Shown one piece after another: positions 584-55,816 of a stretch of DNA of 64,000 nucleotides. The position numbers and the translations under genes were made by a program. The DNA comes from a virus (lineage: Duplodnaviria > Caudoviricetes): positions 96,001 to 160,000 of the IMG/VR virus record IMGVR_UViG_3300024493_000235; one strand, given 5' to 3'. Position 1 is the stretch's first letter, and every line of letters begins with the position of its first letter. Below the pieces are notes generated by a model. It saw only the letters and a list, made by a program, of their open reading frames with translations, did no database searches and had not been told where the DNA came from.

Positions 584-1627
584 TTAATCCACGGGCCTGT
601 CGACTTTGTGTCGAAGACCGTAACGCAGTTTTGCATGAGCTTGTATAGCCGTTCTTTTTGCAATTAAAAGATCGGCCTTTTTATCGTAATCACCTTCTTG
701 TTCGGCTTTTGCTATAAGAGCATCTATTTTAAGCACTTCATGCTGTAACTCTTCTGCAGCAGCTCTTTTGTTTTTAGCTGAAATCGCTTTTGATGTTACA
801 ACTACAGCGGCGGCTATAGGAAGATTCACCATAGCAAGTCCTAATATAGCAACCCCTTTTCCTGCAGTCTTAAGTCCTTTCTTTAAATGCTCTCCTAAAG
901 TTTTAGGATCTTCTCTTGCTTCCGCCATCTGTTGAGTAATAGCTTTCTCCTGCTGTTCGATTGGCATGTTATTTACCTTTGCAACAGAAGATTTTGTAAA
1001 GTCTTGCACCTTTACTGCGGTTTTCTTCACAGCGGCGATTGCTTTTTGTGTTGTCGGATTATTTTTGAAGTCGCTAAATTTTTTCTTAGCGGCATCTTTT
1101 GTATTTGTAAGTTTTGTTTTAAAAGAAGTTTTCTCTTGTAATCCTCCACCTGCAAATGCCGATTTATTAGGAGTTGCATCTTTACTTCCAGAAGATAATC
1201 TCGATGGAGGGATGCTTCCACTTTTTGGATCCGGCTTCGCAGGCTGTTTCACTTGGGCTTCGGGTTTTTTTGCAGGCTGCACATTTGCTTTTTGTCCCTG
1301 CGCTGTATTTTTAGGATTAAGAGGATCTTCTTTTTTCTTTTGAGGATTTACAGGTTTTTCACCTGGCTTTTTCTCATCAGGTTTTTTTGCTTCCTGTGTA
1401 ACCTCTCCTTCTTTTTTATCGTCAGTTTCTTTTGCTTCAGTTAACGGATTATATCCTGCGGCACTTATTGAGTTGCCGGCATTGGAAACTGATCCGTCTT
1501 CTGCTTCGGGAAGAAGAGATTCGTATATTACAGGGATAGCTGGAGTAATTCTTAAAATCTCAAACTCTTCGCTTATTCCAAGACGAAGATATTCCGAGTT
1601 CTCAAATGATATAGGAGCGAACTGCAT
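584..1627 (-). CDS. Putative virion head protein with Lys/Pro-rich linker and C-terminal hydrophobic segment
   Basis: 347 aa, coupled to the upstream ORF (TAATG overlap). ISFE/IYE putative processing sites, low-complexity linker, hydrophobic VAILGLAMVNLPIAAAVVV followed by coiled coil. Confidence 0.6.
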   Translation of the reverse strand: MQFAPISFENSEYLRLGISEEFEILRITPAIPVIYESLLPEAEDGSVSNAGNSISAAGYNPLTEAKETDDKKEGEVTQEAKKPDEKKPGEKPVNPQKKKEDPLNPKNTAQGQKANVQPAKKPEAQVKQPAKPDPKSGSIPPSRLSSGSKDATPNKSAFAGGGLQEKTSFKTKLTNTKDAAKKKFSDFKNNPTTQKAIAAVKKTAVKVQDFTKSSVAKVNNMPIEQQEKAITQQMAEAREDPKTLGEHLKKGLKTAGKGVAILGLAMVNLPIAAAVVVTSKAISAKNKRAAAEELQHEVLKIDALIAKAEQEGDYDKKADLLIAKRTAIQAHAKLRYGLRHKVDRPVD

Positions 1628-4350
1628 TATGTGCCCTCCTTTAATAAGTCTTCAAGATGAACAGGTTTTACCTTAAACGATGTATCGGCATTTTCTGTAG
1701 CAATAGGCGGCATCGTGTCATTGTCATTCCAGTTCGTTCCGCCTCTTTTTATTTCCCAATCCTTCTTGTCAAGTTTTTGTCTTACAAGAGAATCGAAGGA
1801 ACAAGCTGCAACAGAAATATCATGCTGAACAGCAGTGAGGTTTGTATAATCAGGAGGTTTTATTACATGGGACATTTCACATATTCCGTACATCTCTCCC
1901 ATATCTTGACCCGAATATCCTGGGACATGTATCTTATGAGAAAGCTCTTCGTTGTATTGTTTTATAAGATCCATTCTCTGGAGTATTGTTATAAACGATA
2001 AAGATTCAAGAACAGGAAGAAGCCATTCTTGCATTTCCTTTGAATTCATGTCGACACCGTTGTGTTTATCCATATCCGTCGGTGTACTGAATAGTGCACA
2101 ATCGTCTATAACAGCAGGAGTTTCAAAGTATTCAAAGAATGTAGAATCCCTTGAAAAAAGCTTATTGATGAGTATCTTTGTGATATCTACAATAGGATGA
2201 AAATCGTTTGAATCTCTAAGACTCAAAGTCTTTTGTGTTGAAGGATTGTACAATTCAAAAAGCATCACTAACGCATATTCTGCGCTCATGACATTCTCGA
2301 TGATGGCATTCGACAGATATTCCAAAAGGTTCCGATACTGATTTCTATCATCGGTTACGATGCTATTGTCAGCTCTGTTGGCCCTTCTAAATATTTCAAG
2401 TAAATCTTTTCTGATTCTTTCTTGTACATCCCAGGTGTTGTTATAAACAGAGTTTGCAATATTTTCTTCTTTGCGATATTGAAACTCGGGAAGATGAATT
2501 GACCTATACTGGTATTTTACGGAAAGATTAAAAAGCGTATGAAGCAAATGCGGAGAGCCTTGAAAAACACTATTTGATAACGCGCATGCCATAAATGTAA
2601 GCCACATGGAGTATACAGAGATTGGTCTACTTGCTATGGGATTTTGACTTGGATCTCTTAGAGCTCCGTTAGTAAGAGTCAGAATCGCAATATCAACCAC
2701 CCCGTTTTCAATAAGCATACCTAAAGACCCGTTGTTGTTAAACTGATCAAAAGTTATAGCGGAGACAACCCTTGCAAGATACGTGTGATCTCTTATTGGA
2801 TATACATGGCACGGATCTTCATTTCCATCTCCCATTACTTTCTGGTATATATCGCTTATACCTTCGCCGAATAAAAATTCAATATGACGCATGATTTTTT
2901 GCGACCATGAATGCGGGTATCTTTGTAAAAAAGATTCGTAGTTTGCTCTTGTCATACCGATGTCATCGGCATCACTTTGACCGTTTCTGATATTTTTAAC
3001 AGCCTCATAAATCTTATCAAAAGAAAGAGCGTTGTAGAACGAATAGAAGTTAAGGTTGTTAAAGTTATATAATACAGGACTTCCTATACGAAGTTGATAC
3101 AAATTCATCCTGCATACAAACGAAGATTTTTTTAGCATCGAGTAGATATTGTTGATAGAATCTTTGAGTCTATCTTTTTCAGAATATTCTGTAAAGAAAC
3201 CATCACAATATCCTGCTAACACTTTCTTAAGAAAAGTGACCATATGCTTGAAGTGAAATTTTTCAACATCCAAAGATTGTTGCAGTTTAACTTGTATTAC
3301 TTCGGTTTTTCCTTTTCCGTCTCCAAAACCACCACCGAAAAGTAAGTTGTCTTCTTCGATAACTTCCGAAAGACGAATAAATGTTGCAGCTAGGATAATA
3401 AACTGTTCGAAGTTTTCCACAATGCCGTTATATTCTTTTGACACCGCAATTTCTTGTTTTTCAATCCATTTTGTATATATGTCGTTTCCCATGTTGTATT
3501 TACAAATAAGGATTAGATACATTCCAAGTGTCGAAGTTATCACATTAAGGTCATATCGGTTTAAAATGTTTCTCGGATGATGCATCACATTTCCTATCAT
3601 TGAACTGAAAAGGGTCTTAAACGAGTATTTCATAACCGAAAGATTCCATGTAGAAGAATCTGATACGGCTTTTGAAAACATCGCATGAAAATTGTTATTG
3701 CGAAGATATTGTTTGTGTTTTAAATACTCGTTACATAATTTAAGAGTGCGACTTAAGTATATATTGTACGCATTTGTACTTACTTCTTTATTGCCTTTAA
3801 CTTCGGCAAGACGTACTTCTTCGGATGAAGACAATCCGTTTTTTATATGGACTATATCTTCAAAGGATTCTGTAGCCGCAGCGAATATCGTTGCGTTTAT
3901 AATATTGATAATTCCAAGGGTTTCAGCTCCAGTAAGATCATCTTTGATGATGGCGTTGTAGCCTGTCATACCTTCAAATTTATCAATATTAAAGTATTTT
4001 TCGTATTTGGATAAGGTGCTGCAGATATCTACAGTCCCGTATGGAGCGACAGATTGGCTTGCGTTGTAAAAAGCGCTCATCATATTATAGTCTTCTTTAG
4101 GAAGACTTTCGTCGTTGTTTCCTTTTGTCGTAAGGTATGCCGATTCTAATATTTCGCACCGCTTTGACAATATGGCTATAACCATGGGAATAAGAAACAT
4201 TTTACATGAAAAAATATTGTCTTTGGATACCTCAAATAAGGCATCCATTGTATTTATTTCATGTACTTTTATACGTCCATTCGAGTTCCCATTGTCACTG
4301 CTATCGTTCAGTTTTTGACGTAAAAAGTTGTCAACTTTATTGTATTGCAT
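1627..4350 (-). CDS. Large late hypothetical protein (probably virion)
   Basis: 907 aa, AGGAG RBS, late promoter at 4377..4388. No domain recognised. Confidence 0.6.
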   Translation of the reverse strand: MQYNKVDNFLRQKLNDSSDNGNSNGRIKVHEINTMDALFEVSKDNIFSCKMFLIPMVIAILSKRCEILESAYLTTKGNNDESLPKEDYNMMSAFYNASQSVAPYGTVDICSTLSKYEKYFNIDKFEGMTGYNAIIKDDLTGAETLGIINIINATIFAAATESFEDIVHIKNGLSSSEEVRLAEVKGNKEVSTNAYNIYLSRTLKLCNEYLKHKQYLRNNNFHAMFSKAVSDSSTWNLSVMKYSFKTLFSSMIGNVMHHPRNILNRYDLNVITSTLGMYLILICKYNMGNDIYTKWIEKQEIAVSKEYNGIVENFEQFIILAATFIRLSEVIEEDNLLFGGGFGDGKGKTEVIQVKLQQSLDVEKFHFKHMVTFLKKVLAGYCDGFFTEYSEKDRLKDSINNIYSMLKKSSFVCRMNLYQLRIGSPVLYNFNNLNFYSFYNALSFDKIYEAVKNIRNGQSDADDIGMTRANYESFLQRYPHSWSQKIMRHIEFLFGEGISDIYQKVMGDGNEDPCHVYPIRDHTYLARVVSAITFDQFNNNGSLGMLIENGVVDIAILTLTNGALRDPSQNPIASRPISVYSMWLTFMACALSNSVFQGSPHLLHTLFNLSVKYQYRSIHLPEFQYRKEENIANSVYNNTWDVQERIRKDLLEIFRRANRADNSIVTDDRNQYRNLLEYLSNAIIENVMSAEYALVMLFELYNPSTQKTLSLRDSNDFHPIVDITKILINKLFSRDSTFFEYFETPAVIDDCALFSTPTDMDKHNGVDMNSKEMQEWLLPVLESLSFITILQRMDLIKQYNEELSHKIHVPGYSGQDMGEMYGICEMSHVIKPPDYTNLTAVQHDISVAACSFDSLVRQKLDKKDWEIKRGGTNWNDNDTMPPIATENADTSFKVKPVHLEDLLKEGT

Positions 4351-4376
4351 AAAAACTCCTTATTCGAGTTTGTGTT

Positions 4377-4388
4377 TATTAACATGTT
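4377..4388 (-). promoter_or_regulatory. Late promoter AACA-N6-TA
   Basis: Minus strand AACA-TGTTAA-TA upstream of the RBS of 1627..4350. One of ~19 equivalently placed copies. Confidence 0.8.
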
Positions 4389-4428
4389 TAATGCAGGATT
4401 TTAAGAGGGTATCAACATTGTCTTAAAT

Positions 4429-4438
4429 TATATATCAT
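4429..4438 (+). promoter_or_regulatory. Early/middle promoter motif TATATATCAT
   Basis: Recurrent TATAYATMAT motif just upstream of the AAGGAG RBS of 4458..4853. Confidence 0.7.
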
Positions 4439-4457
4439 GTAAGTAAGGAGATAAAAT

Positions 4458-4853
4458 ATGTCAAATAAAGCATATAATAAGAAACGACGGGAAGCTGCTG
4501 AAAGACGGAAATATATAAATAAAAAGAATGTGGAAGAAAGACGTAAACTTGCAGCGGAAATAAATAGTAAGCCACTTCCTGGTAACACAATACCCGCTAC
4601 ACCAATAACCGGAAATACTGACGGGATACACATTTCATATAAAGAACACAGCGGTCATGAAGATATGATTACAAGCATCGAGTTATTAATGTCGTATGCG
4701 GGTATGGGTTCTTTTTACTTCCAAAAACCGGTTGTTGATAGAACGGAAAAGCCACATAAAGAGAAAAGACAAGAAGGCGATACCGAAGCTCAATGGGAAG
4801 TTGTTGACACAAAAGAACTTCCAGATGGCAGGAAGCAACTTATGTTACAATAA
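4458..4853 (+). CDS. Hypothetical basic protein
   Basis: 131 aa, AAGGAG RBS, own promoter and terminator. Confidence 0.7.
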   Translation: MSNKAYNKKRREAAERRKYINKKNVEERRKLAAEINSKPLPGNTIPATPITGNTDGIHISYKEHSGHEDMITSIELLMSYAGMGSFYFQKPVVDRTEKPHKEKRQEGDTEAQWEVVDTKELPDGRKQLMLQ

Positions 4854-4883
4854 TATCCGGGGCCAAATCGGCCCCGGATATTA
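4851..4883 (+). terminator. Intrinsic terminator hairpin (GGGGCC family)
   Basis: taatatccggggcc-aaatc-ggccccggatatta followed by a T-rich run. Confidence 0.8.
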
Positions 4884-4904
4884 TGTTTTTAATTGAAGTA
4901 TAAT

Positions 4905-4914
4905 TATATATAAT
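4905..4914 (+). promoter_or_regulatory. Early/middle promoter motif TATATATAAT
   Basis: Upstream of the AGGAGG RBS of the BrnT-like gene. Confidence 0.7.
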
Positions 4915-4936
4915 GTCAGTAAACAGGAGGGATATT

Positions 4937-5614
4937 ATGAGCGTAGAAGAAATATCACTAGAAGCTATTCTAAACGATGATGTAGGTAAAACTATTATTC
5001 ACGGCATTGGTGATAAATTTAAATTCTCAGAAGACGCGTTTTATAACGAAGAATTTGACAAAATACGGGGTGACTTAGACAATCGAAACGTTGAAGTCAT
5101 TGATCGCGAAAAAGAAACTGGCCATATCGATCATTTCATCTGGAATATCGGAAAAAGCAATGAAAACATTACCGACACAAGCGAAGAGAAAGACGGGTTT
5201 TCATTTTATATGGCAAGATTTATCCATTACGATCCATACAAAATGGAAGTACCAGAACTTGCAGACCAATCAAAAGGAGAAGACCGAACGGCCTTCATAG
5301 GACAAATTTTTGATCCTTTACATCCGACATTATCAAAGAAAGATCCTGTACTTGCTATTATTCAACTTAAAAAAGAATATAAAGGCAGAATACGGATTAT
5401 ATTTTGTTACAGAAAAAATCTTTCAAAAGAACTTCGACTGGCATATTTTGAACGCGCTACTGCGATGTCGCGTACAGAAAACAGACGAAAACCTGTAACT
5501 AAAGAAAGTGCAGCTCAAAACGGGGAAATATACGATGATCCGTATGGCGGCGACTTTCCGAAGGCGCTTGATCGACTTCGTAAAATAGTCGACAATTGGG
5601 AAGAGTCTGATTAA
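4937..5614 (+). CDS. BrnT (DUF497/RelE-fold)-like protein with N-terminal head-protein-type leader, paralog 1
   Basis: ATG at 4937 follows AGGAGG (MSVEEISLE...). The core FIWNIGKSNEN..KDGFSF..DP..EDRTAFIG..VLAII..RIRII follows the BrnT pattern W-x3-K-x3-N..K(H)G-x-F..ER-x3-IG..IRIISAR. Clear paralog of 55125..55787. Confidence 0.65.
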   Translation: MSVEEISLEAILNDDVGKTIIHGIGDKFKFSEDAFYNEEFDKIRGDLDNRNVEVIDREKETGHIDHFIWNIGKSNENITDTSEEKDGFSFYMARFIHYDPYKMEVPELADQSKGEDRTAFIGQIFDPLHPTLSKKDPVLAIIQLKKEYKGRIRIIFCYRKNLSKELRLAYFERATAMSRTENRRKPVTKESAAQNGEIYDDPYGGDFPKALDRLRKIVDNWEESD

Positions 5615-5618
5615 TCAT

Positions 5619-5652
5619 ATAATATCTGGGGTCATTTGGCCCCAGATATTAT
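5619..5652. terminator. Bidirectional terminator hairpin
   Basis: ataatatctggggtca-tt-tggccccagatattat between convergent genes. Confidence 0.8.
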
Positions 5653-5655
5653 TTT

Positions 5656-6459
5656 TTAGCATTTGTACTTACACGCTTTTACAAACTCAATCCATTGATG
5701 TGTATCATCAACGAATGGCTTCGGGCATATTTTTCCTGTAAGGTCATAATGCCTTAGAAGCAGTATCGTTCCAAGTTCAGGTGTCTGCATAACAGTATTA
5801 GGTGAAAGAGAACCTTCTTCATCAATGAATAAAGAGAGTTCTCTTGACACCCATTGGATAAACGTGGCGGCATTTATAGCTGCTTTTTCCCAATTACCGT
5901 TATTGCAAATTTCGATTTGTAAACACTTGAAATTCTGAGCGTTGTTAAACGCGTTGCGTGCTATCTGTGTCTGATTTTTATTTACAGGATTTACGATGAT
6001 TCGTGCGTCTCCTGCACCATGACATCTTTCGTTAAACGGAAGTGCCATACACATGGAATTTTCATCAAAGAGAACTTGAGTTGAACCATGTCCGAAAGGC
6101 ACAATTTTTTCAACGGTGCTACTTATTTCTTGTAACATCTCTTCTTTGACAATACCTTGCTCGGTTTTTCTTTCGACTGTTGTCCTTTTCCAACCCCTAC
6201 AAAAATATTTTGCATTTGCAAGAGCTGTTGCGCCAGGATTTGCATTTGCCGTATAATGAACGACAATGCCATTAAAATTGGTAAGCAATCTTCCGTCACG
6301 ATTAGGATGTCCGTCAGGAATTATGTTTGTCTGAACCTTTATTCCGCTTTTCTTTTCGAAGTCAGCTACACGGGCAGGTTCACTTAAACGACCTAATGCG
6401 TTTACGATACTTTGATCGCTTGAATAAATTCGAGATTCCTCTTTTGTGATCATTCCCAT
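5656..6459 (-). CDS. N-acetylmuramoyl-L-alanine amidase (Amidase_2 type), putative endolysin
   Basis: GIVVHYTAN, IEIC and LRHYDLTGKICP motifs supply the His/His/Cys zinc ligands. Own late promoter. Confidence 0.85.
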   Translation of the reverse strand: MGMITKEESRIYSSDQSIVNALGRLSEPARVADFEKKSGIKVQTNIIPDGHPNRDGRLLTNFNGIVVHYTANANPGATALANAKYFCRGWKRTTVERKTEQGIVKEEMLQEISSTVEKIVPFGHGSTQVLFDENSMCMALPFNERCHGAGDARIIVNPVNKNQTQIARNAFNNAQNFKCLQIEICNNGNWEKAAINAATFIQWVSRELSLFIDEEGSLSPNTVMQTPELGTILLLRHYDLTGKICPKPFVDDTHQWIEFVKACKYKC

Positions 6460-6486
6460 AATTTTCTCCTTAATAAAAGTACTCTA

Positions 6487-6498
6487 CATGATGATGTT
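6487..6498 (-). promoter_or_regulatory. Late promoter AACA-N6-TG
   Basis: AACA-TCATCA-TG upstream of the amidase RBS. Confidence 0.7.
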
Positions 6499-6519
6499 TC
6501 AAGGACTCAAATGTGTATT

Positions 6520-7035
6520 TTATTTAGAGATAATGAGATGAAATCTTTTATTGACAACGTCACTTGATATATATATTTTTGACATAAGATATGTAGCAAG
6601 ATAATTATGATATTTTGCTAGTGCATCTTCTTGTACAAATGAAGGAGTATATTCTCTAAATTGTTCAAATACAATTCCTCTTGCGACATTAGATATATCC
6701 GCATTTGCAACATCGGTGGCTTTCATCATGATGTCGTATGTAGGTTCGATGTGAACGCCCCAACCGATAAGATGATATAATTTCATTGTCGGTTTAAAAG
6801 AAATACTATACCATTGCTGTGTCTGGTGTAAGAAATTCTCTTGTAACATTTGAAATCGTTCTGTTGTGATATTAGCTTTTAGGATATTTTGTATTTGAAA
6901 TAACCCTAGTTTTTCATTTATCCACGAATGATACACTTGAGCTATATATTTACAAATGTCAGAAACACCTAAATAGACTATATTATCACTCTTCTTGGTC
7001 TGTGTCGTCGGCTGTTGAGTCTTTTCCTGTTTCAT
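6520..7035 (-). CDS. Hypothetical protein
   Basis: 171 aa, overlaps the end of the RusA-like gene in a late operon. Confidence 0.65.
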   Translation of the reverse strand: MKQEKTQQPTTQTKKSDNIVYLGVSDICKYIAQVYHSWINEKLGLFQIQNILKANITTERFQMLQENFLHQTQQWYSISFKPTMKLYHLIGWGVHIEPTYDIMMKATDVANADISNVARGIVFEQFREYTPSFVQEDALAKYHNYLATYLMSKIYISSDVVNKRFHLIISK

Positions 7036-7654
7036 TTTTGCTCCATCTTTCTTTTCGGTATTTAATAGCTTCTAAGTGTTCGGGTATTATAATACTTGAT
7101 GTATTATAACATATGAGCACCTCGATTCTTGGGTTAACTGAGTAATATTTGCTGGTGACATTTGTCACTACTTGTGAGTCATCATAAATTAAGAACTCTT
7201 TAACTGTGTCAAAAACAATCTTTTCCATGTTGTCATTATCAAACCTTCTGTATGCTGGACGCAGAATTTTTGCTTCACATAAATATCGTTTTTCTCTTGA
7301 AAAAAATTGTGGTGTTTTGATATAGTAGTTAAAATGAAGAATCACTTCTTCATACCTTGGGAATGAGCCATCTAAAAATGGGGAGCTTCCTAGCTGTTCT
7401 GTTATCATAGCCCTTAACATTTTTACAGTTTTCTCTTTATCAGGCACATAGATTCTCCATAATTTAGGATTAATGCGAATAGGTTTATACGGATGAGGAT
7501 CAATATTAAGTACAAATGGAATAAAAAACAAAGACGCAGGATTTGCATAAGATGCGTATTTTTCATTTATATTTTTAACCTGTGTTTCAGTTAATTTACA
7601 ATCCCGCATAACCTTTTGAATGTATATGGAATTATCAAAGAAGTTATCCATCAT
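6986..7654 (-). CDS. rusA: RusA-like Holliday junction resolvase
   Basis: RRFDNDNMEKIVFD...IYDDSQV...KYYS..PRIEV matches the RusA D-x-DN-x2-K-x3-D...DD-x-Q pattern. Confidence 0.8.
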   Translation of the reverse strand: MMDNFFDNSIYIQKVMRDCKLTETQVKNINEKYASYANPASLFFIPFVLNIDPHPYKPIRINPKLWRIYVPDKEKTVKMLRAMITEQLGSSPFLDGSFPRYEEVILHFNYYIKTPQFFSREKRYLCEAKILRPAYRRFDNDNMEKIVFDTVKEFLIYDDSQVVTNVTSKYYSVNPRIEVLICYNTSSIIIPEHLEAIKYRKERWSKNETGKDSTADDTDQEE

Positions 7655-9351
7655 TGAAAAAAGTCCCTCACTCCTGTGACTATGCGAGCAGGAATTCCTA
7701 ATAATGGATTACTCGCAACTCCAGCTATCCAAGTGCGAGGATCAAAAAATCTTTGAAATTTAAACTTTGCAGCTTTCCATGCGTTTTGCCATCTTGAAGA
7801 TAATGTACTCGATGCAAAAGCGTCAACTCCGCCTAATACGTTTAAGTAATCACGAAGCATACTGTTTTTATTAAAGAACGTTCTTCCAGCCCATTTATGA
7901 CTCATTGACATAACAAGGGTTCCGAATAAATCCTTTACAGTGAGGGTTATTTCAACAGTACGAGCTAACCTGCTTATTGTCCAATCGTTTGTATCGGATC
8001 CTCTTTTTATGGAAACACTTGTTATCATCCCCATATCACAACTAAACCACCCTTTTGAATACATACGTATTAACGGAGGAGATGAATAAACAGAAGAATC
8101 GGATTGACGCGGCATAATAAAACCCAATATACACGCTATAGGAAAGAGTATATTTTCAATGTAACAATTAGGTTCCCCATTTGGAGCGTGAAGTTTTATT
8201 TGTATTGTAATATTTTTTGAATATGTGGATTCTTTCCATATTTCCGGGAATAAAAGATTTCCGCCAGATTTGATAACAGATTCCGCAGTTCCAGAAAGAG
8301 TTCCTGCAATACCGCCTAGTGCATTCGCAGCACCAGAAAGTGAAAAACCTTTTCCGTCATGAGCATCATTTGTTAAAAACAATACTTCTTTTGCTTGATC
8401 TGATATTCCTTTTGCTTTTTCAGCCGCAGCCGATTGCCCTGTTGTGTTATCAAAAGAATCTCCGGCATCAGTAGATTTCTCAACACGGAACGGGATGAAC
8501 GAAGGTTTTGAAAGATAATTGCTTTTATTGTTATTCATGGCATCCGCAAAATCCCAGAAACCGTAATACCTTGAAAACATTGTAAGATAATCATTTACGG
8601 TATTAAATAATCCTTCACCATAAGCTGTAGCTGGAATATCAATATGCATACGCACCATAAGTTCATTTAATATGCCAGAGACATACATACGATATGTTTT
8701 AAAGTCTGGTTGAAAATCGTAGAATTTCATTGGACCTGATTTTCCGTCTGTCTGTATGGTCGTAGAATCTTCTGTGAGTTCAGTTAAAAAATCTTCTAGT
8801 GTAAAAGTTTGTACACCAAGTTCAGAATCACTTTCAAAGTTTTTTTCTAATATAGCAGTCCTTAAATGATCGGCGTCACTTCCTGAAATACCACCTGTAA
8901 GTCCACCGAATAAAGTTTGAGTTAACCCAAAGAATTTCGGTTTTCCAGGCTGAATAAAAACAATTGGATTATTAGGTCTTATTCTTTTATTATACACTCT
9001 TCCGTAATATGGAGCGGCAATACCGGCAGTTCTCGGATCGGCTAACATGTTGTATTGCCATAACGGATTGAGAATTCCTCTTTCTCCAAGTTTAAGAGAA
9101 GTTAAATCCGGCTTTCCTTCCCCTTTGGCTCCTTCACCTGGAAACGGAATATCTGTAGATATATTATATCCTGACGGGTCCATTCCTAATGCGAAAGGAG
9201 ATGCAAAAAATACCGCATTGCTAGCGGATAAAGGTTCTGTATCTTCAAGAGATTCTTCGTGCCATTTTTTTGATGTGGGAATACCCATAGTATATTTACT
9301 TTCTATATCGTCTTTGTCTTCTTCTTTAATCCCGTGCCATAAAAGATACAT
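7651..9351 (-). CDS. Virion structural protein, probably baseplate hub/tail-tube initiator fold
   Basis: 566 aa. C-terminal FPEIW..ITIQIKL..SPPLIRMY..GMITSVSI..VEITLTVKD resembles tube-initiator (T4 gp48/gp54-like) patterns. Late promoter. Confidence 0.55.
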   Translation of the reverse strand: MYLLWHGIKEEDKDDIESKYTMGIPTSKKWHEESLEDTEPLSASNAVFFASPFALGMDPSGYNISTDIPFPGEGAKGEGKPDLTSLKLGERGILNPLWQYNMLADPRTAGIAAPYYGRVYNKRIRPNNPIVFIQPGKPKFFGLTQTLFGGLTGGISGSDADHLRTAILEKNFESDSELGVQTFTLEDFLTELTEDSTTIQTDGKSGPMKFYDFQPDFKTYRMYVSGILNELMVRMHIDIPATAYGEGLFNTVNDYLTMFSRYYGFWDFADAMNNNKSNYLSKPSFIPFRVEKSTDAGDSFDNTTGQSAAAEKAKGISDQAKEVLFLTNDAHDGKGFSLSGAANALGGIAGTLSGTAESVIKSGGNLLFPEIWKESTYSKNITIQIKLHAPNGEPNCYIENILFPIACILGFIMPRQSDSSVYSSPPLIRMYSKGWFSCDMGMITSVSIKRGSDTNDWTISRLARTVEITLTVKDLFGTLVMSMSHKWAGRTFFNKNSMLRDYLNVLGGVDAFASSTLSSRWQNAWKAAKFKFQRFFDPRTWIAGVASNPLLGIPARIVTGVRDFFQ

Positions 9352-13450: not shown

Positions 13451-14178
13451 AACATCCTACGATTAAATGCGGCATTTTTGTTGAACCGTTTCGTCCAAAA
13501 AATCTTGGACTTAGCGTCGAAGAAGATGTGATTAAATATCATATGTCCAGAGAGGAAGCGACAGAACTTGCAAGACAAACAAGCGATTTTGCCGAACTAA
13601 ATGATTACAATGTTGACGGAAGTACACAGTTCGTCGAATTGCGAACGTTCGATTTGTTTAAGCCGCTACAACCAAAAGTTGTAAAAAGTGAAGATCCTAT
13701 GGATGACATCAACGATTTTGCTTTAAACGGTATTACAGCAAAAAGTAAGATACGTCATGGTATACCGCCTATGACATCAAGAATTATATACAGCGGATTT
13801 CCAAAGTATTTTCCAATAGCTATGGTGCAAAATCAAAAAGAAGGAGATATTCTAAAATTTAAATGCATGCTTGCAAAATATAAGTTCAATTCGGAAACTA
13901 TCTCCATATCCGAAACGTACAAAAAGGGCATACATTTAAAAGAGCAGTATAACAATCCATGCTTTTTCGGTTACAGACTCGTATATTTTAAATGCCTTTG
14001 TTACCAAGCCGCTTGTGCAAGAGAACCTTACACTGTTAAAGAAATTCACAGAACTGAAGATTCTACTAATCCTGTATCAGGAGAAATACAAAGCGGACAA
14101 GCGTTTACAAAAAGTTTTCCATGGAATCATCAAATGTTTCAAGTGGCTTTAAAAGCCTGCTACGACTTAAAGTATTAA
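13447..14178 (+). CDS. Hypothetical protein
   Basis: 243 aa, GGAGG RBS, ATGA-type overlap with the previous gene. Confidence 0.7.
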   Translation: MKHPTIKCGIFVEPFRPKNLGLSVEEDVIKYHMSREEATELARQTSDFAELNDYNVDGSTQFVELRTFDLFKPLQPKVVKSEDPMDDINDFALNGITAKSKIRHGIPPMTSRIIYSGFPKYFPIAMVQNQKEGDILKFKCMLAKYKFNSETISISETYKKGIHLKEQYNNPCFFGYRLVYFKCLCYQAACAREPYTVKEIHRTEDSTNPVSGEIQSGQAFTKSFPWNHQMFQVALKACYDLKY

Positions 14179-14182
14179 AACA

Positions 14183-14206
14183 CTTCGGGGCCATTTGGCC
14201 CCGAAG
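14183..14206. terminator. Bidirectional terminator hairpin
   Basis: cttcggggcca-tt-tggccccgaag between convergent genes. Confidence 0.8.
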
Positions 14207-14214
14207 ATGTATTT

Positions 14215-15951
14215 TTATGCAGCAATCTTGCCTATGAACTCTCTAAACATTCTTCTCACACTCGTGTTTTGGAAATCCAAGAACCTAAGAGTATGAAACG
14301 TTTCGAGAGTTGTAAGGTATATTGTCGCTTCTTGCACAACCTGTTCTCCTGGAATTTTTGTAATGGCAACTTCCGGAGTGTATCCTTCCATTGTGAATCT
14401 TTCTTTGTACCTGGTTCCTATATTAAGAACCAGATTATCAAAAATTGTACGGGCACTTTCTGTTGTCGTTACTTTTCCTTGAATGGCCTTATTTATTTCA
14501 AACGAAATATTTTTTGTAAGGTCATCCATTTTCTGTAACGTATCGCTGTATTTTTTATTCGACGAATCGGAAATTGTTCGAAGAGCATCGGCAGCAGATT
14601 TACTATTTGCTTGTAATGTCGCCATTTCATCTAAGTTGCCAGAACTTACGGCATCAACAAGCTGCAGTGAAATCTTTTCGTGAATCTTTTCAAACTTCTC
14701 ACTTCCTGTATTAAACGTATGGTTGTTAGCTTGTGCGAAAGATGACGCATCTTCGATTTCTTCTGCAATGGTAAGAGGTGTTTTTACACCTTGTTCTCCT
14801 CCGTCTGTTGTACCATCGCTTTCCGTTGTGGGCTTAGTACTACTCTCGACATCAGACTGCTTTTCTGTGGTTCCGTCTGTTGCTGTCGAAGCCCCTTCTT
14901 CCTTTTTGAGTTCTTCTCCAGTTTCTCCTGCATTTCCTGAATCGCCTTCTTTCTTTCCTGCGAGCTCTTCTTTACCTTCTCCAGGGTTTCCGCCAGTTCC
15001 TTCCGTCCCCGCGCTGGTGTCGGCTGAGGCTCCTGGCTCTGTTCCACTTCCGGCTCCTGCGTCGGCTTCGGTTTTTTGCTCTTCGCCATTTGCATCTCCT
15101 TGATCTTTATTGAGGGGATCCGCCTTTGTAGAAGATTCGATTTCTTCTTTTGCACTTGCGATTTTTTGTGCAGTTTGTTTATACTTCTCGATTTCCCCTG
15201 AAACCTTGTTTTTTATCTTTTCGATAATGTCGAGGTTTTCTAGTACAATAGTTGCGGCATAAGCTGAAAATTGGGTATTGAGTCTGTCGTTTTGAACAGA
15301 AACTAAACTCACTTCTTCTTGCACATAGGTGTTTATCTTCGCAATTTCAAGTCCGCATTCTTTTGTGACTGTATCATAGTCAAACCTTTCTGCAGCTTCT
15401 AATGATGCAACTTCTTTAGCTTCTTCGGCTAAGTCCTGAATAAAGCTTGGAAATTTGTAATCCTTACTTTCAAAGTTGCAGACAGGTTTTAGCTTCGAAT
15501 AGATGTCATAAGCCATTTCGGCTATATAAGCTTTTATCGGTTCTTTACTGCGAATTTCATCCGGTATAGGACAAGCCTCGGTTATAATAATAGAGATAGT
15601 TTCCATGATAAGTCTGTCCCCAAGAACTTCTTCAAAAGCATATTTCGCCGTTCGAAGATATTTTTCCACTTCCGGCCGTGTCGAAAACTTGTTTTCAACT
15701 GTAACCGGAATATTACCGATACTATCTCTCGTTTTAACAGAACCTGGAAAGAATGTGGCTTCTTGTTTTACAAGATTTTTTGAATTGATGTCTGCTAAAG
15801 CGTTGTTGTGTTTTTCAAGTGCGAGCTTTCGTTGTTGAATTACCTCTGCTGGTAATTCTTTTTTAGATTCAGTAGTTACAGGTTTATGACTTAAAAAGTT
15901 ATTTCCTATTACAACTCCTGATTTCTTCGAAACACCATCGAATAAACCCAT
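14215..15951 (-). CDS. Putative virion head protein with acidic Gly/Thr-rich linker
   Basis: 578 aa, AGGAGG RBS, many T/S/A-x-E motifs (VTTES, YAFEE, ASLEA, FTMEG). Last gene of a late operon. Confidence 0.6.
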   Translation of the reverse strand: MGLFDGVSKKSGVVIGNNFLSHKPVTTESKKELPAEVIQQRKLALEKHNNALADINSKNLVKQEATFFPGSVKTRDSIGNIPVTVENKFSTRPEVEKYLRTAKYAFEEVLGDRLIMETISIIITEACPIPDEIRSKEPIKAYIAEMAYDIYSKLKPVCNFESKDYKFPSFIQDLAEEAKEVASLEAAERFDYDTVTKECGLEIAKINTYVQEEVSLVSVQNDRLNTQFSAYAATIVLENLDIIEKIKNKVSGEIEKYKQTAQKIASAKEEIESSTKADPLNKDQGDANGEEQKTEADAGAGSGTEPGASADTSAGTEGTGGNPGEGKEELAGKKEGDSGNAGETGEELKKEEGASTATDGTTEKQSDVESSTKPTTESDGTTDGGEQGVKTPLTIAEEIEDASSFAQANNHTFNTGSEKFEKIHEKISLQLVDAVSSGNLDEMATLQANSKSAADALRTISDSSNKKYSDTLQKMDDLTKNISFEINKAIQGKVTTTESARTIFDNLVLNIGTRYKERFTMEGYTPEVAITKIPGEQVVQEATIYLTTLETFHTLRFLDFQNTSVRRMFREFIGKIAA

Positions 15952-24533: not shown

Positions 24534-24609
24534 CCTAGGGCTATAATGGCCCTAGGGTATTTTTCTTCAATTTACCCCCCCCCCCGATATTGAAACAATA
24601 TAATAATCT
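24534..24609 (+). repeat. Duplicated terminator-poly(C)11-late promoter cassette, copy 1
   Basis: Identical to 28422..28495 except C11 vs C9. Contains the hairpin cctagggcta-taa-tggccctagg and AACA-ATATAA-TA (24594..24605). Confidence 0.9.
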
Positions 24610-24642: not shown

Positions 24643-25368
24643 ATGGGAGAACGAATAAAAGAAGTAACTCTCGAAGAACTTCTTGAAGAACCCGAAGTTG
24701 TTATAGAGCAAACCGAAGGAATCGAAGCGTACGAATGTTTCATTGACAACCCAAATATGGGTTTAGCTTTCGCCGATATGGGAGAAGTTACCGTTGAAAA
24801 ATGGATTGGACATGCTGCAGATAAGAAAGCTCCAGATGCGATTAAACTTCGTATTTCAAAGTTGGGATTTGGGGGCGATGCGATCCTTCCCGACGGTTCA
24901 AAAGTAAAATTAACGTACAAAGATGTGTTAGGCTCCACGTATGTTAAAAACGCCCTTAAAGAGTGGGATGATTATTACGTCAAACAACTCGGATACAGGC
25001 AATTCACTCAGGAAGATAAAGGTAAAATGAAAACCGATTTCTCCCAATATCTGTGTAAGTTATTTAGCCTTACTTGGACATCTAAACTTTCTTGTGAGGT
25101 GATAGACGGTCACGGATATTTCTCACAATTTGCAACAACTTTGGGAAAAGAGATCATCGATAATTTGGAAAGACCACAAAACGAGATGAAGTGGGCTGCA
25201 AATCAAGGTGGTGTATTTATCATCTATGTGAAGCCTAGCCAAGACGGAAAACCGGATAAAGTTTTCTCAAGACGTTTTATTACACTCGGTGTTATCACCA
25301 AAAAAGCGAACTATTTCGAAAAAAGAGGCGGCTCGGGCGGTATCGATATCGGAAAGATAAACAAATAA
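24643..25368 (+). CDS. Late protein with KEVTLEELL leader (putative head cargo)
   Basis: MGERIKEVTLEELLEEPEVV, AAGGAG RBS, own late promoter and terminator. Confidence 0.7.
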   Translation: MGERIKEVTLEELLEEPEVVIEQTEGIEAYECFIDNPNMGLAFADMGEVTVEKWIGHAADKKAPDAIKLRISKLGFGGDAILPDGSKVKLTYKDVLGSTYVKNALKEWDDYYVKQLGYRQFTQEDKGKMKTDFSQYLCKLFSLTWTSKLSCEVIDGHGYFSQFATTLGKEIIDNLERPQNEMKWAANQGGVFIIYVKPSQDGKPDKVFSRRFITLGVITKKANYFEKRGGSGGIDIGKINK

Positions 25369-27250: not shown

Positions 27251-28408
27251 ATGGCCAGAATTGAAGAAATCACACTCGAAAGTTTGTTAAATCCGCAGAG
27301 CGAATTGTATGTCGATCCGGCTGATGCTCTTGTAAGCGACGACCCAGCCGAGGTTGCCATCGAATGTATGGATATCCTTGATGAACTCCACACGCTCCAG
27401 GGAAATCTTCTGTCATACGAAGCTGCCAAGGCTGTCAAGAAAGCCAAATCCGCTTCTAAGAAGAAGAAAATCGTGAAAACGAAAATGAAAGCCAAGGACG
27501 CCAAAGCAAAACTCAAGGATCCGAAAACACTTAAGGTGAAGAAAGTCACCAAGGAATCCGATGCCGCCACCGACGGTGGAACTGGCCCGCTGCCGACAAC
27601 CGCCGATACGAATGGTCTTACCGAAACCGATTTGGATGTTGACCCGGATGCCGAAGTCGAAGTTTCCGAAGTTTCCGACGAGACACTGCCCGATGACAAC
27701 TCCGCAAATGCTGCCGCCACAGAAGGCGTTGATTTCTGGGTTGAATACGAAGATGCAGGAATCGTAACATTGGAAGCGAACGTGAAAGAAAATCTCAAGA
27801 AGTTCGGCGAAGCCATCGTTAAGATGCTTAAAGCCGTGGCCGATTTCTTTGTATCAATTGGAAAGAAATTTATCGGGATTTTCCAGAACGTCGAGCAGTA
27901 TTACAAGACAAACAAAGCCGCCGTTGATGCCGGATTTACAGACGGGTTTGAAATGCAGTCGAAATTCAAACTCGATGCCGGTGTGCTCGCCAAAATCGGC
28001 GAAGCCATAAAAACTCAGATGGATTCCGCCGTTGATACGGGCGAAGAGCAAAAAACAATTACTGGCCTCTTTACTGAACTTGGCGAAAACGGGAAGGTAA
28101 CCAATAAGGATTGTGGATTCTCAAGTGGAAACGATATTGTCGGATGCTTTAACGGCACAGTAAAGAAAGCCGTAAACGACTGTATTGCTGCGGCCAAGAA
28201 AAAGGGTGCCGAGAAAACTGCTGCGGCCAAGAAAGCTGCCGACAGTGGCAACAAGGAAGAACTCACCAAGATTAAAAAGGATGCCAGCAATATGCAGAGG
28301 AGTGCATCCACATTGTACAAAGAATACGGAAAAGCTGCTGCATACGGAATGAAAATTCTCCATGCCGCCGCTGCCGCCGGTTCAAAGAAAGCCCCCGCGG
28401 CCAAATAA
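27251..28408 (+). CDS. Probable abundant internal head protein (Lys/Ala-rich)
   Basis: AAGGAG RBS supports ATG at 27251 (MARIEEITLESLL). LSYEA/AATEG/VTLEA sites. Visibly more GCC/AAG codons than neighbours. Confidence 0.7.
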   Translation: MARIEEITLESLLNPQSELYVDPADALVSDDPAEVAIECMDILDELHTLQGNLLSYEAAKAVKKAKSASKKKKIVKTKMKAKDAKAKLKDPKTLKVKKVTKESDAATDGGTGPLPTTADTNGLTETDLDVDPDAEVEVSEVSDETLPDDNSANAAATEGVDFWVEYEDAGIVTLEANVKENLKKFGEAIVKMLKAVADFFVSIGKKFIGIFQNVEQYYKTNKAAVDAGFTDGFEMQSKFKLDAGVLAKIGEAIKTQMDSAVDTGEEQKTITGLFTELGENGKVTNKDCGFSSGNDIVGCFNGTVKKAVNDCIAAAKKKGAEKTAAAKKAADSGNKEELTKIKKDASNMQRSASTLYKEYGKAAAYGMKILHAAAAAGSKKAPAAK

Positions 28409-28421
28409 CTGATTTTTAAAT

Positions 28422-28495
28422 CCTAGGGCTATAATGGCCCTAGGGTATTTTTCTTCAATTTACCCCCCCCCGATATTGAAACAATATAATAATCT
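28422..28495 (+). repeat. Duplicated terminator-poly(C)9-late promoter cassette, copy 2
   Basis: Matches 24534..24609. Promoter AACA-ATATAA-TA at 28480..28491. Confidence 0.9.
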
Positions 28496-28516: not shown

Positions 28517-29614
28517 ATGTATGTAAAAGAAGTTACCCTTGAAGAATTACTTGATGATAATTATGGTAAAGATACAACCTTGGAAAACGTAATATCCGAA
28601 GAAGATTATGAACTTATAGATATTACAACCACATGTGATTTACTTGATATGGCGGTGGATATGAATGACGGCATCGATTATCTAGCTGCATGTATGATGC
28701 ACGGTACCAAAATAGGCGATACCATATACACCATAGAAGGTGTAAAAGAAGCGGCAAAAACTATTATTGCTTTCATAGGTAAAGCAATTCAATTATGTCT
28801 TTCGTTATTGTCCCGATTAGGCACAATAATAGTCTTTCCAGTCTTACTTCTCATAAAATTCTTCGGAAAAATTCCAATGAAAAAGTTTTTAAACGCCATA
28901 AAAGAAAGCTGGCATGAAACAGATCAACTGTTTTTAAACGCACTTGTTCCATTTGTAAGTTCAGACATAACTCAAGAAATAAACAAAATTGATCTTGAAC
29001 TTAGAAGAGAAACGAATGATGGTATTTCACTTCTGGAAGACGCCATATTAAACGCTAAGCATGATTTGGCGGTTATCTCTATAAAAAATACACGTGACGC
29101 TATGGAACGTCAACAGAAGAAAAACGAATTCCAAGTGAACTCATTTAATATGCAAATTGATGAGATATTATCTTTATATGATGATATCGAAAAAGAGTCT
29201 AAATCAAGAAAAGAACAATGGGAAAATTCGACTAGCAAACAGTACCAAAAAGATTTTGACAGTATATACAACAACTTTTCTGATGCACATGTATTCGGCG
29301 ACATTGAAAGATGGGGTGCAAATAATATAAAGCGACAATGCGAAGAGAGTGAAAAACATCTTCAAAAAATAGCAAAAGATATTCAAAATATATCTTTCGA
29401 TGATACCGATGCAACCATTCCTGAAGATGAAGTACGAAATTTTAGGGTGTGTATATTAAATATGGTAAACGGTGTTAGAAGTATAATACAATGCCGTATT
29501 AAATTATGCACAATTAGGAATAAATTTTCATTTCGCGTATGCCAAAATGTAAAAAAAATTTACGATTCTATAGGGCGTAAACAGCAAGATGAAAATCTTG
29601 AACTGCGGAAATGA
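28517..29614 (+). CDS. Internal head protein-like paralog with KEVTLEELL leader
   Basis: MYVKEVTLEELLDD, YTIEG site, then a hydrophobic amphipathic helix and coiled coil. Confidence 0.7.
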   Translation: MYVKEVTLEELLDDNYGKDTTLENVISEEDYELIDITTTCDLLDMAVDMNDGIDYLAACMMHGTKIGDTIYTIEGVKEAAKTIIAFIGKAIQLCLSLLSRLGTIIVFPVLLLIKFFGKIPMKKFLNAIKESWHETDQLFLNALVPFVSSDITQEINKIDLELRRETNDGISLLEDAILNAKHDLAVISIKNTRDAMERQQKKNEFQVNSFNMQIDEILSLYDDIEKESKSRKEQWENSTSKQYQKDFDSIYNNFSDAHVFGDIERWGANNIKRQCEESEKHLQKIAKDIQNISFDDTDATIPEDEVRNFRVCILNMVNGVRSIIQCRIKLCTIRNKFSFRVCQNVKKIYDSIGRKQQDENLELRK

Positions 29615-55124: not shown

Positions 55125-55787
55125 ATGGGAAAACGAATAAAAGAAGTAACTCTTGAAGAAGAAAACAATATCGTTCATGGTATTGGTGACAAATTTAAGT
55201 TTTCTCGAAAAGCCTTTCGAGAAAAAGAATTCGACAAGACTATTGGTGATTTAGACAAACGCAATGTCGAAGTCATTGACAGGGACAAAAACACAGGAAA
55301 GATATTTCATTTCATATGGAATATTGGAAAAAGCAACGATAATATCGACGACACAAGAGAAGGAAAGGGAGGATTTTCATTTTATTTATCAAGATATGTA
55401 TATTACGATATATACAAAATGGAAGTACCCGACCTTGTAGAAGCACAATACCGACATGAACGTACTGCATATGTAGGACAAATATTTGATCCGGAAAGAC
55501 CGCACGCAAGAACAAAAACTCCGGTAGCCATAGTAATACAACTGAAGGAAGAAAAAAGGGATAGAATTCGAATCATTTCTTCATATATGAAAGATCTTGA
55601 TCATGGTATTACAGAGTTATATTATGATCGAGCATTAAAAATGGCGCGGAAAGGAGCTCAACAACAAAAAATAACCTTAGAAAAAACTGTTATCGAAGGC
55701 CCAGTCGATGATCCTCCGCCAGGAGAAGTACAAAAAGCAATCAATGAAATCATGGGTTATCCAGATGACGATTCCGAGATAACATGA
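55125..55787 (+). CDS. BrnT (DUF497/RelE-fold)-like protein with KEVTLEE leader, paralog 2
   Basis: FIWNIGKSNDN..GKGGFSF..HERTAYVG..VAIVIQ..DRIRIISS. Shares HGIGDKFKFS, RNVEVIDR and GQIFDP with 4937..5614. Confidence 0.65.
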   Translation: MGKRIKEVTLEEENNIVHGIGDKFKFSRKAFREKEFDKTIGDLDKRNVEVIDRDKNTGKIFHFIWNIGKSNDNIDDTREGKGGFSFYLSRYVYYDIYKMEVPDLVEAQYRHERTAYVGQIFDPERPHARTKTPVAIVIQLKEEKRDRIRIISSYMKDLDHGITELYYDRALKMARKGAQQQKITLEKTVIEGPVDDPPPGEVQKAINEIMGYPDDDSEIT

Positions 55788-55791
55788 AATC

Positions 55792-55816
55792 ATCCGGGGC
55801 CATTACGGCCCCGGAT
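55792..55816 (+). terminator. Intrinsic terminator hairpin
   Basis: atccggggcc-attac-ggccccggat followed by a T-rich tail. Confidence 0.8.

Follow-up and report, generated by a model that had tools for sequence, protein, structure and literature searches.

What does a giant phage do with a gene whose product has the fold of a toxin-antitoxin ribonuclease (RNase), when no antitoxin gene stands beside it? The question is raised by the gene at 4937-5614 of a 64,000-nucleotide (nt) window, namely bases 96,001-160,000 of the IMG/VR record IMGVR_UViG_3300024493_000235 (268,442 bp, 36.8% GC), which CheckV estimates to be ~91% complete and whose DNA occurs in a termite-gut metagenome. An earlier note, made from the letters alone, had described this gene as an orphan BrnT-like RNase bracketed by sites of the type cut by prohead proteases. 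We find it near certain that its product (hereafter the target) has a BrnT-type core and belongs to a BrnT-related family. With somewhat less than even confidence, and by analogy with T4 RegB and the PBECR domains of phages, we favor the view that the target would be an early-made, antitoxin-free, RNA-targeting effector that is possibly trimmed and packaged. Coordinates are those of the window unless prefixed G000, which denotes the whole 268-kb record.

The target product falls into three parts: a flexible N-terminal leader, an enlarged core of the BrnT/BECR fold, and a flexible acidic tail. Its AlphaFold2 (AF2) model (predicted local distance difference test [pLDDT] 76.9; predicted template modeling score [pTM] 0.75) matches known proteins of the BrnT fold, which is defined by an antiparallel sheet of four strands against which two short helices pack: the top two Foldseek rows for this model are the Salmonella BrnT-type toxin 7vd7_A and BrnT of Brucella abortus (3u97). 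In VIA-align, target residues 64-173 superpose on 7vd7_A with a Z score of 7.8 and a root-mean-square deviation (rmsd) of 2.5 Å (90/94 residues), and on 3u97 with Z 5.9 and 2.3 Å (77/77 residues), while the next row of the same search stands at Z 2.8. A Foldseek-independent search returned the CdiA-CT(NC101) tRNase 5i4q_A over target residues 24-163 (Z 6.4). This tRNase is a BECR variant with seven strands, and target residues 24-63 correspond to its additional N-terminal strands (rmsd 3.0 Å, 86/88 residues); residues 19-63 therefore extend the sheet and do not form a separate domain. The two proteins are only 6% identical, and CdiA-CT(NC101), whose catalytic residues are Arg200 and His248, differs in being a secreted, EF-Tu-dependent toxin that is paired with an immunity protein; its authors named BrnT as its nearest structural neighbor (PMC5737660). 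Structural neighbors further down were all BECR RNase toxins (colicin D, RelE, YoeB, and MqsR), and the best neighbors in BFVD were weak matches (E 0.015-0.07) to MuF-C and polyvalent proteins.

By Pfam alone the assignment is weak: against PF04365 the target reaches 13.9 bits (E 0.07), under the gathering cut-off of 34.5 bits, its paralog P0003 reaches 13.4 bits, and its paralog P0002 has no match. The wider family is more telling. Searching 1.84 billion representative proteins with a profile built from the full-length sequences of the three paralogs retrieved 43 relatives, which makes the family a rare one; PF04365 is matched by 23 of the 35 aligned members (best E 6.5e-9), and the family profile finds 7vd7_A in the PDB at E 7.5e-5. 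Foldseek, VIA-align, and the family profile thus agree on the BrnT/RelE-superfamily core that had been proposed from the letters. In addition to the fold over residues 64-173 and family-level homology, the target shares with BrnT the core motifs F-x-W, N77, G-x-S-F, A93, D99, I-R-I-I-S-A, and Y170. It differs from BrnT in a 5-residue insert before K-x-G, in ~45 extra N-terminal residues that add strands, in its leader and acidic tail, and in being phage-borne, multi-copy, and placed behind an early-type promoter, besides the altered active site and the missing BrnA discussed below.

Other libraries added little. Neither the record nor the gene family was matched in 50,697 deposited phage genomes by tblastn and megablast, scans of IMG/VR gave no confirmed relative, and PHROGs, PADLOC, and NCBIfam yielded nothing for the three paralogs apart from a weak DrmC match on P0002 (E 0.0034, 14.7 bits), which we take as chance. 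A feature search of the ESM Atlas was uninformative (scores ≤0.83); a fold search there gave two clusters at TM ~0.5, in one of which PF04365 is annotated on 10% of members and a phylum, Spirochaetota in each case, is recorded for only a few. Overall, the family is a BrnT-clade, leader-tagged, multi-copy branch of phage BECR effectors that is undescribed in the libraries searched.

The record carries three intact and two broken copies of the gene (Table 1). The earlier description of the paralog at 55125, P0002, as having the same layout was borne out by its identity to the target and by its AF2 model, in which the leader, core, and tail follow in the same order: a leader MGKRIKEVTLEE, a core with pLDDT 81-96, a linker with ITLE/K and VIE/G (a slash marks the putative cut), and an acidic tail, residues 1-10 and 180-220 falling below 50. 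The third intact copy, P0003, has no leader and begins at the residue aligned to target T19, where the core begins. One broken copy adjoins P0003 and consists of the N-terminal half (a 105-amino-acid [aa] fragment); the other has a ~97-codon internal deletion followed by a frameshift into the C-terminal half. Among the relatives, three copies stand in tandem on a metagenome contig of 17 kb that also encodes a phage tubulin (L006), and two are found on the 93-kb contig LSQA01000004.1 (L014). Distant untagged members lie on higher-GC, bacterial-looking contigs, one of them an 806-kb contig on which the gene is near TnpB-like open reading frames (ORFs). The family thus belongs to jumbo phages of the termite-gut type, with the contigs of the distant untagged members probably bacterial. 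The turnover implied by three intact copies, two broken ones, and the tandem triplet is consistent with a conflict gene. As a separate observation, the 533-aa protein P0019 (L011:301-1902) fuses a BrnT-fold module to a region resembling the protein at L023:1712-2269, a member of phrog_30343 (function unknown) encoded beside the family member on L023; this fusion hints at a functional link between the BrnT-fold module and phrog_30343-type proteins.

Whether such a core could still act as an RNase depends on its active site. The residues critical for RNase activity in BrnT are D6, E7, K9, R41, and E78 (PMC5086665, a review summarizing Heaton 2012). We set this numbering on the 3u97 chain and carried it via 7vd7 to the 35-member family alignment. 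D6 corresponds to target N70 (Asn in 16 and Asp in 4 of the 35 members), E7 to I71 (Arg in 31/35), and E78 to ~K164/E165, in a stretch that varies across the family; K9 is kept as K73 (Lys in 31/35) and R41 as R117, a position that is Asn in 19 and Arg in 5 of the 35. Two of the five are thus retained in the target, and the family conserves K9 alone. The changes seen earlier in the KHG and ISAR motifs are real: the histidine of KHG is Asp in the target (KDG), gives way to KGG in P0002, and is deleted in 15 of 35 members, and IRIISAR reads IRIIFCY in the target and IRIISSY in P0002.

These losses would suit a catalytically dead BrnT-fold binder, acting as a decoy or in anti-defense, that binds a host factor such as a BrnA-type antitoxin, a ribosome, or an RNA and does not cut. 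Such a role would also suit the Phe at position 156, found in the target alone where Ser is otherwise conserved, and the multi-copy, fast-turnover behavior typical of counter-defense genes, and it has a precedent in the inactive PBECR domain of Mu MuF. We nevertheless consider it unlikely. Catalytic sets vary widely among BECR RNases, as in RelE, RegB, and CdiA-CT(NC101), and a phage that sequestered an antitoxin would presumably free the host toxin, with no obvious benefit to itself. Moreover, the site has its own conserved K, R, S, N, and Y residues throughout the family. The near-invariant positions include F67, W69, R71, K73, S74, N75, N77, K85, G87, F88, S89, F90, Y91, A93, R94, D99, G122, R153, I154, S156, A157, and Y170, with F67, W69, S74, N75, F90, D99, and I154 invariant, and the target keeps 20 of 23 such positions, departing at R71I, S156F, and A157C. 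The conserved polar residues sit at the beta1-alpha1 junction and in the C-terminal helix, where D6, E7, K9, and E78 are found in BrnT. In our reading of the alignment, the surface of this site appears to be under selection and to have switched from acidic to basic/polar. The active site of PBECR domains pairs a His (or Arg) of the N-terminal helix with a C-terminal Ser/Thr (PMC5512222); in the family alignment, helix 1 has conserved K73, S74, and N75, and the last strand has a conserved S156.

BrnA (PF14384) had no match at E ≤ 10 when the entire 268-kb record was searched in all six frames, in agreement with the earlier statement that the target has no brnA-like neighbor, and the 131-aa protein encoded upstream, the 232-aa protein upstream of P0002, and the 78-aa ORF downstream of P0002 gave no informative or antitoxin-like matches. 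A qualification comes from P0003, as that paralog lies directly downstream of a gene for a 69-aa ribbon-helix-helix (RHH) protein, in one small operon. The RHH protein scores above the cut-offs for Arc (22.4 bits) and RHH_1 (21.5 bits) and has a weak, below-cut-off match to a RelB-like antitoxin model (E 0.005), so the paralogs might together be conventional toxins held in check in trans by this protein. We regard this arrangement as very improbable: an additional early-type promoter motif separates the RHH gene from P0003, RHH regulators are common in phages, and neither an RHH gene nor any other antitoxin-like gene accompanies the family at the other loci fetched. A complex prediction for the P0003 core and the RHH protein (score 0.00, mark 0.32) speaks neither for nor against binding.

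A solitary RNase-fold gene is in any case unremarkable in a lytic phage, because T4 RegB, an early RNase of RelE/YoeB fold, has no known antitoxin (PMC3014915). As the phage is lytic, the target would not need one either. The likeness to RegB, a stand-alone BECR protein of a lytic phage made from an early promoter, is one of mode of working; no sequence relationship was found (no PHROG match), RegB His48 and His68 have no evident counterpart in the target, and RegB is single-copy and has neither leader nor tail.

The transcription signals place the target on the early side as well. The earlier view of a monocistronic gene with promoter, ribosome-binding site, and terminator stands: the promoter core TATATATAAT, an AGGAGG site, and two flanking hairpins were located (Table 1), and the upstream hairpin makes the target a separate transcription unit. 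The promoter core matches TATATAT[AC]AT, of which there are 66 copies genome-wide, ~45 of them just upstream of ORFs and mostly at 10-100 nt, and this motif resembles the AR9 early consensus AAATATATATTAT-N6-G (AR9 early and late consensus sequences are from PMC5312081). The AR9 late motif, AACA-N6-TA, precedes the genes for the tail tube, virion structural proteins, a 2,894-aa tail protein, and an endolysin in the window. Judged by promoter type alone, the target is an early, monocistronic gene. The same early-type motif also precedes family genes of related phages (L013, L014, and L015/L016), which strengthens the caveat, raised at the outset, that the promoter is of the early and not the late type; the L006 array has a late-type motif upstream. 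An exact TATATATAAT precedes the gene that lies upstream of P0002 (54371), and the two genes are not separated by a terminator. A candidate late promoter for P0002, AACAaggagaTG, lies 3 nt before the ATG of 55125 and fits AACA-N6-TG; we judge it a chance match, because it would yield a leaderless mRNA without a ribosome-binding site.

A promoter of this kind, conserved across related phages, together with the RegB precedent, would suit a purely cytoplasmic early regulator or RNase that is never packaged, and whose leader would serve as a cassette for translation initiation or recombination, as a degron, or in sorting. We hold this to be a possible but rather doubtful explanation, for reasons that lie in the leader itself. 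Five ORFs of the window start with M-x(1-6)-[IV]-[KE]-E-[IV]-[ST]-L-E-[ESA]-[LI]-L, namely the target, P0002, and those at 24643, 27251, and 28517. Among 80,830 residues there are 18 occurrences of [IVL][ST]LE, and by our arithmetic ~0.5 occurrences would be expected at ORF starts, as against the 5 seen. The three carriers without a BrnT fold belong to the virion module, have late-type promoters, and resemble one another and the target only in the leader; the gene at 24643-25368 adjoins virion structural genes (phrog_23804 and phrog_23545). The EEISLE leader remarked on earlier is thus real and non-random, and the company that it keeps argues against a purely cytoplasmic role. Furthermore, the codons of the tag vary between copies while the peptide is kept, which points to selection on the peptide, and the peptide is conserved between phages. 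An exception is the pair at 24643 and 55125, which share 34/36 nt. Two of the late tagged genes also have ahead of them, at ~24555-24600 and ~28440-28480, a terminator hairpin followed by 9-11 consecutive C and by GAAACAATATAATAAT, which places a long poly-C tract right upstream of a late promoter.

Relatives in other phages show the same habit with different peptides. On L014 (8004-10357), two BrnT-fold genes start with MTERITLESLI and an unrelated 249-aa neighbor with MTERINLEDLI; the ribosome-binding site, spacer, and first 15 nt of the three genes are near-identical, suggesting a cassette moved by recombination. This identity and the 34/36 nt shared between 24643 and 55125 point to exchange of a cassette and speak for the cytoplasmic explanation. 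On L023 (339-2913; Ga0326512_10003379), four adjacent and otherwise unrelated genes, one of them a BrnT-fold member, have a common leader of ~20 residues with the pattern F-x-E-[IAV]-Y-[NQE]-[ED]-[ST]-x-x-L-x-E. Taken together, these two loci suggest that in each phage lineage the family adopts the leader in local use.

The leader also resembles a cleavage site. As in T4 head assembly, gp21-type proteases work in the prohead and are not known to act in the cytoplasm. A gp21-type prohead protease gene is present in this phage (G000 249875-250327; Peptidase_S77, 40.4 bits against a 27-bit cut-off). The leader reads V/I at P4, S/T at P3, E at P1, and S/A/E at P1', close to V-A-x-E/S, the logo measured for the protease of another giant phage, SPN3US, which removes propeptides of 20-24 residues (PMC10052503). 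As had been suspected, therefore, the leader looks like a giant-phage prohead-protease site. Like the T4 capsid targeting sequence (on IPI-III and Alt) and the propeptides of SPN3US gp45 and gp225, it is a short N-terminal peptide on unrelated proteins that ends in x-x-E before a small residue. It differs from them in that the two BrnT-fold carriers lie behind early-type promoters and in that packaging and cleavage are predictions here. A comparable route to the head has been proposed for PBECR RNase domains, which are found alone or as fusions with MuF or portal proteins, are believed to be packaged and injected, and include inactive versions (Iyer et al., 2017; PMC5512222). These are likewise predicted BECR-fold RNases encoded by phages, yet the link of the target to the head would be a leader of ~10 residues instead of a MuF/portal fusion, and its core is of the BrnT clade.

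A second candidate site lies toward the other end of the protein. Each window paralog has two and only two matches to the pattern [VI][ST]xE, one in the leader and one at an aligned spot of the linker (VTKE/S and ITLE/K), and P0003 has a match at neither place. The [VI]-T-x-E is aligned within an otherwise diverged linker, with ~0.04 occurrences expected by chance per 20 residues. The earlier idea of a gene bracketed by protease sites thus describes the target and P0002 fairly, while its C-terminal half, given this alignment and chance level, is suggestive only. The linker and tail are modeled with low to intermediate confidence in the target (pLDDT 52-54 at residues 181-200 and 67-78 at residues 201-220), and leader confidence is low in the AF2 models of both the target and P0002, so that both flanks are predicted to be flexible. 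The tails are net acidic in the three copies of this phage, very much so in P0003, and not so in close homologs, whereas a P-x-x-L-x-x-A terminal-helix motif is common to the target and the close homologs. A tail that is a fused BrnA front end found no support, as searches of the tail profile against the PDB and of the tails against Pfam (E ≤ 10) gave nothing.

Two sites, a disordered linker, acidic tails in three copies, an untagged P0003 with neither site, and a protease gene in the same genome would all suit a self-inhibited toxin, in which the acidic tail, and perhaps the leader, would silence the RNase until the prohead protease cuts, the released core then serving late host shut-off or acting after injection. 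We think this improbable. The thought that the tail might cover the active site found no support in structure prediction, since no model sets the tail on the conserved surface and the tail of P0002 has pLDDT <50. In addition, the tail has no sequence similarity to BrnA, its acidity is not conserved in close homologs, and the activating enzyme, being of the gp21 type, would be expected to work in proheads and not in the cytoplasm.

The explanation that we favor, an early effector without antitoxin, would run as follows. The gene would form a separate transcription unit behind an early promoter like those of AR9, of the virion RNA polymerase type, and during host takeover the core of its product would act on RNA, cutting or binding mRNA or tRNA through a remodeled basic/polar surface (K73, S74, N75, N77, K85, Y91, R94, R153, and Y170) in place of D6, E7, and E78. 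The leader would be a portable address-and-cleavage tag in common with late virion-module proteins. Most likely, part of the protein pool would then enter the prohead, where the gp21-type protease would trim after [VI]-[ST]-x-E at the N-terminus and perhaps also in the C-terminal linker, and the trimmed core would reach the next host together with the phage DNA. Within this scheme, catalytic activity and packaging are the weak steps; we infer both, together with the RNA target and cleavage, from the features described above.

Several observations weigh against this explanation. There is no AACA-N6-TA late motif in the promoter region of the target, which is unexpected for a head protein, and the early-type promoter of the target conflicts in timing with the late-type promoters of the other three leader carriers. 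The C-terminal [VI]-T-x-E is common only to the two window paralogs, and close homologs have instead a hydrophobic-E-[GS] ~10 residues further on, followed by the P-x-x-L-x-x-A helix. Loss of D6, E7, and E78, together with the departures at R71, S156, and A157, means that activity may have been lost. Finally, the absence of the family from cultured phages leaves no experimental system from which a function could be transferred.

A bolder version can be drawn from the same evidence, although we would give it little credence as a whole. A lineage-specific address peptide that can be swapped between genes might bring a BrnT-fold RNase into the heads of jumbo phages of this kind, and the core, trimmed at both ends by the prohead protease, might be injected with the genome and attack host RNA before phage gene expression. 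The protein would be harmless as long as it bears the leader and acidic tail, the early promoter would supply a second, cytoplasmic dose, and the whole would be an unfused counterpart of MuF and polyvalent toxins.

Table 1. Positions of the target gene, its signals and predicted parts, other leader carriers, paralogs, and neighboring genes (window coordinates unless marked otherwise).
Feature	Position	Strand	Basis or remark
Target coding sequence P0001, leader-tagged BrnT-fold protein, 225 aa	4937-5614	+	ORF list and sequence
Early-type promoter core TATATATAAT	4905-4914	+	matches TATATAT[AC]AT
Ribosome-binding site AGGAGG	4925-4930	+	read in sequence; ATG 7 nt downstream
Terminator hairpin of upstream gene	4850-4884	+	15-bp stem, 8 GC pairs, then T-run
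Terminator hairpin of target gene	5619-5652	+	15-bp stem and T-run, near-identical to 4850-4884 hairpin
Leader, residues 1-18, MSVEEISLE/AIL..., [VI][ST]LE motif	4937-4990	+	common to five ORF starts
Enlarged BECR-fold core, residues 19-181	4991-5479	+	structure comparison
BrnT-superposable part, residues 64-173	5126-5455	+	VIA-align
Linker and acidic C-terminal helix, residues 182-225	5480-5611	+	AF2 pLDDT
Putative site V-T-K-E/S, residues 186-190	5492-5506	+	[VI]-T-x-E aligned with ITLE of P0002
Amidase_2 endolysin	5656-6459	-	late-type promoter; just downstream of target
RusA-type resolvase	6986-7654	-	downstream of target
Unrelated 241-aa protein, leader MGERIKEVTLEELL	24643-25368	+	late-type AACA-N6-TA promoter
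Unrelated 385-aa protein, leader MARIEEITLESLL	27251-28408	+	late-like promoter
Unrelated 365-aa protein, leader MYVKEVTLEELL	28517-29614	+	late-type AACA-N6-TA promoter
Promoter variant ATATACATAATAA upstream of P0002	55096-55108	+	same variant ahead of broken copy at G000 180,685
Paralog P0002, 220 aa	55125-55787	+	51% identity to target over 212 aa, E 2e-72
Paralog P0003, intact, untagged	G000 14,168-14,830	-	outside window
Operon behind TATATATAAT-type motifs: 71-aa ORF, RHH gene, P0003, 105-aa fragment	L003:1303-2422; G000 ~14,168-15,287	-
Broken tagged copy, leader MGEIKEVTLDELL / MGEIKEVTLDELLRENIVH	G000 180,300-180,685 (L005)	-	behind ATATACATAATAA variant

The target lies between a gene for a 131-aa protein without known function and the convergent endolysin gene. 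The upstream gene (4458-4853) is preceded, at 4415-4457, by a late-type AACAttgtctTA and directly thereafter an early-type TATATATCAT, the arrangement seen at continuously expressed genes of AR9. A single hairpin design, ATATCCGGGGCC...GGCCCCGGATAT, recurs behind unrelated genes at 4850-4884, 5619-5652, and 55791-55816. Contigs assembled from two termite-gut metatranscriptome runs cover 2827-3142, 4555-4734, 5638-5901, and 6125-6313; none lies over 4937-5614, although gaps between such contigs prove nothing. Within 1500-9000, these contigs match parts of three genes, those for the 907-aa protein, the 131-aa protein, and the endolysin, at an identity of at least 99%, and sequence of this phage is thus present in the RNA libraries of at least two samples.

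Since the phage is uncultured, the functional claims made here are predictions. T4 RegB and predicted PBECR domains have been the main examples of toxin-antitoxin RNase folds in lytic phages, and the target would add an antitoxin-free example of the BrnT clade, with a remodeled surface, multiple copies, and rapid turnover. Because the family carries the local leader that its phage also puts on other proteins, it could serve as a marker of such leaders, and it may mark address peptides and cargo sets in uncultured giant phages. If the protein is active, it would offer a clue to the shutdown of host RNA by AR9-like and nucleus-forming phages; if it is inactive, it would be a toxin fold repurposed as a binder.

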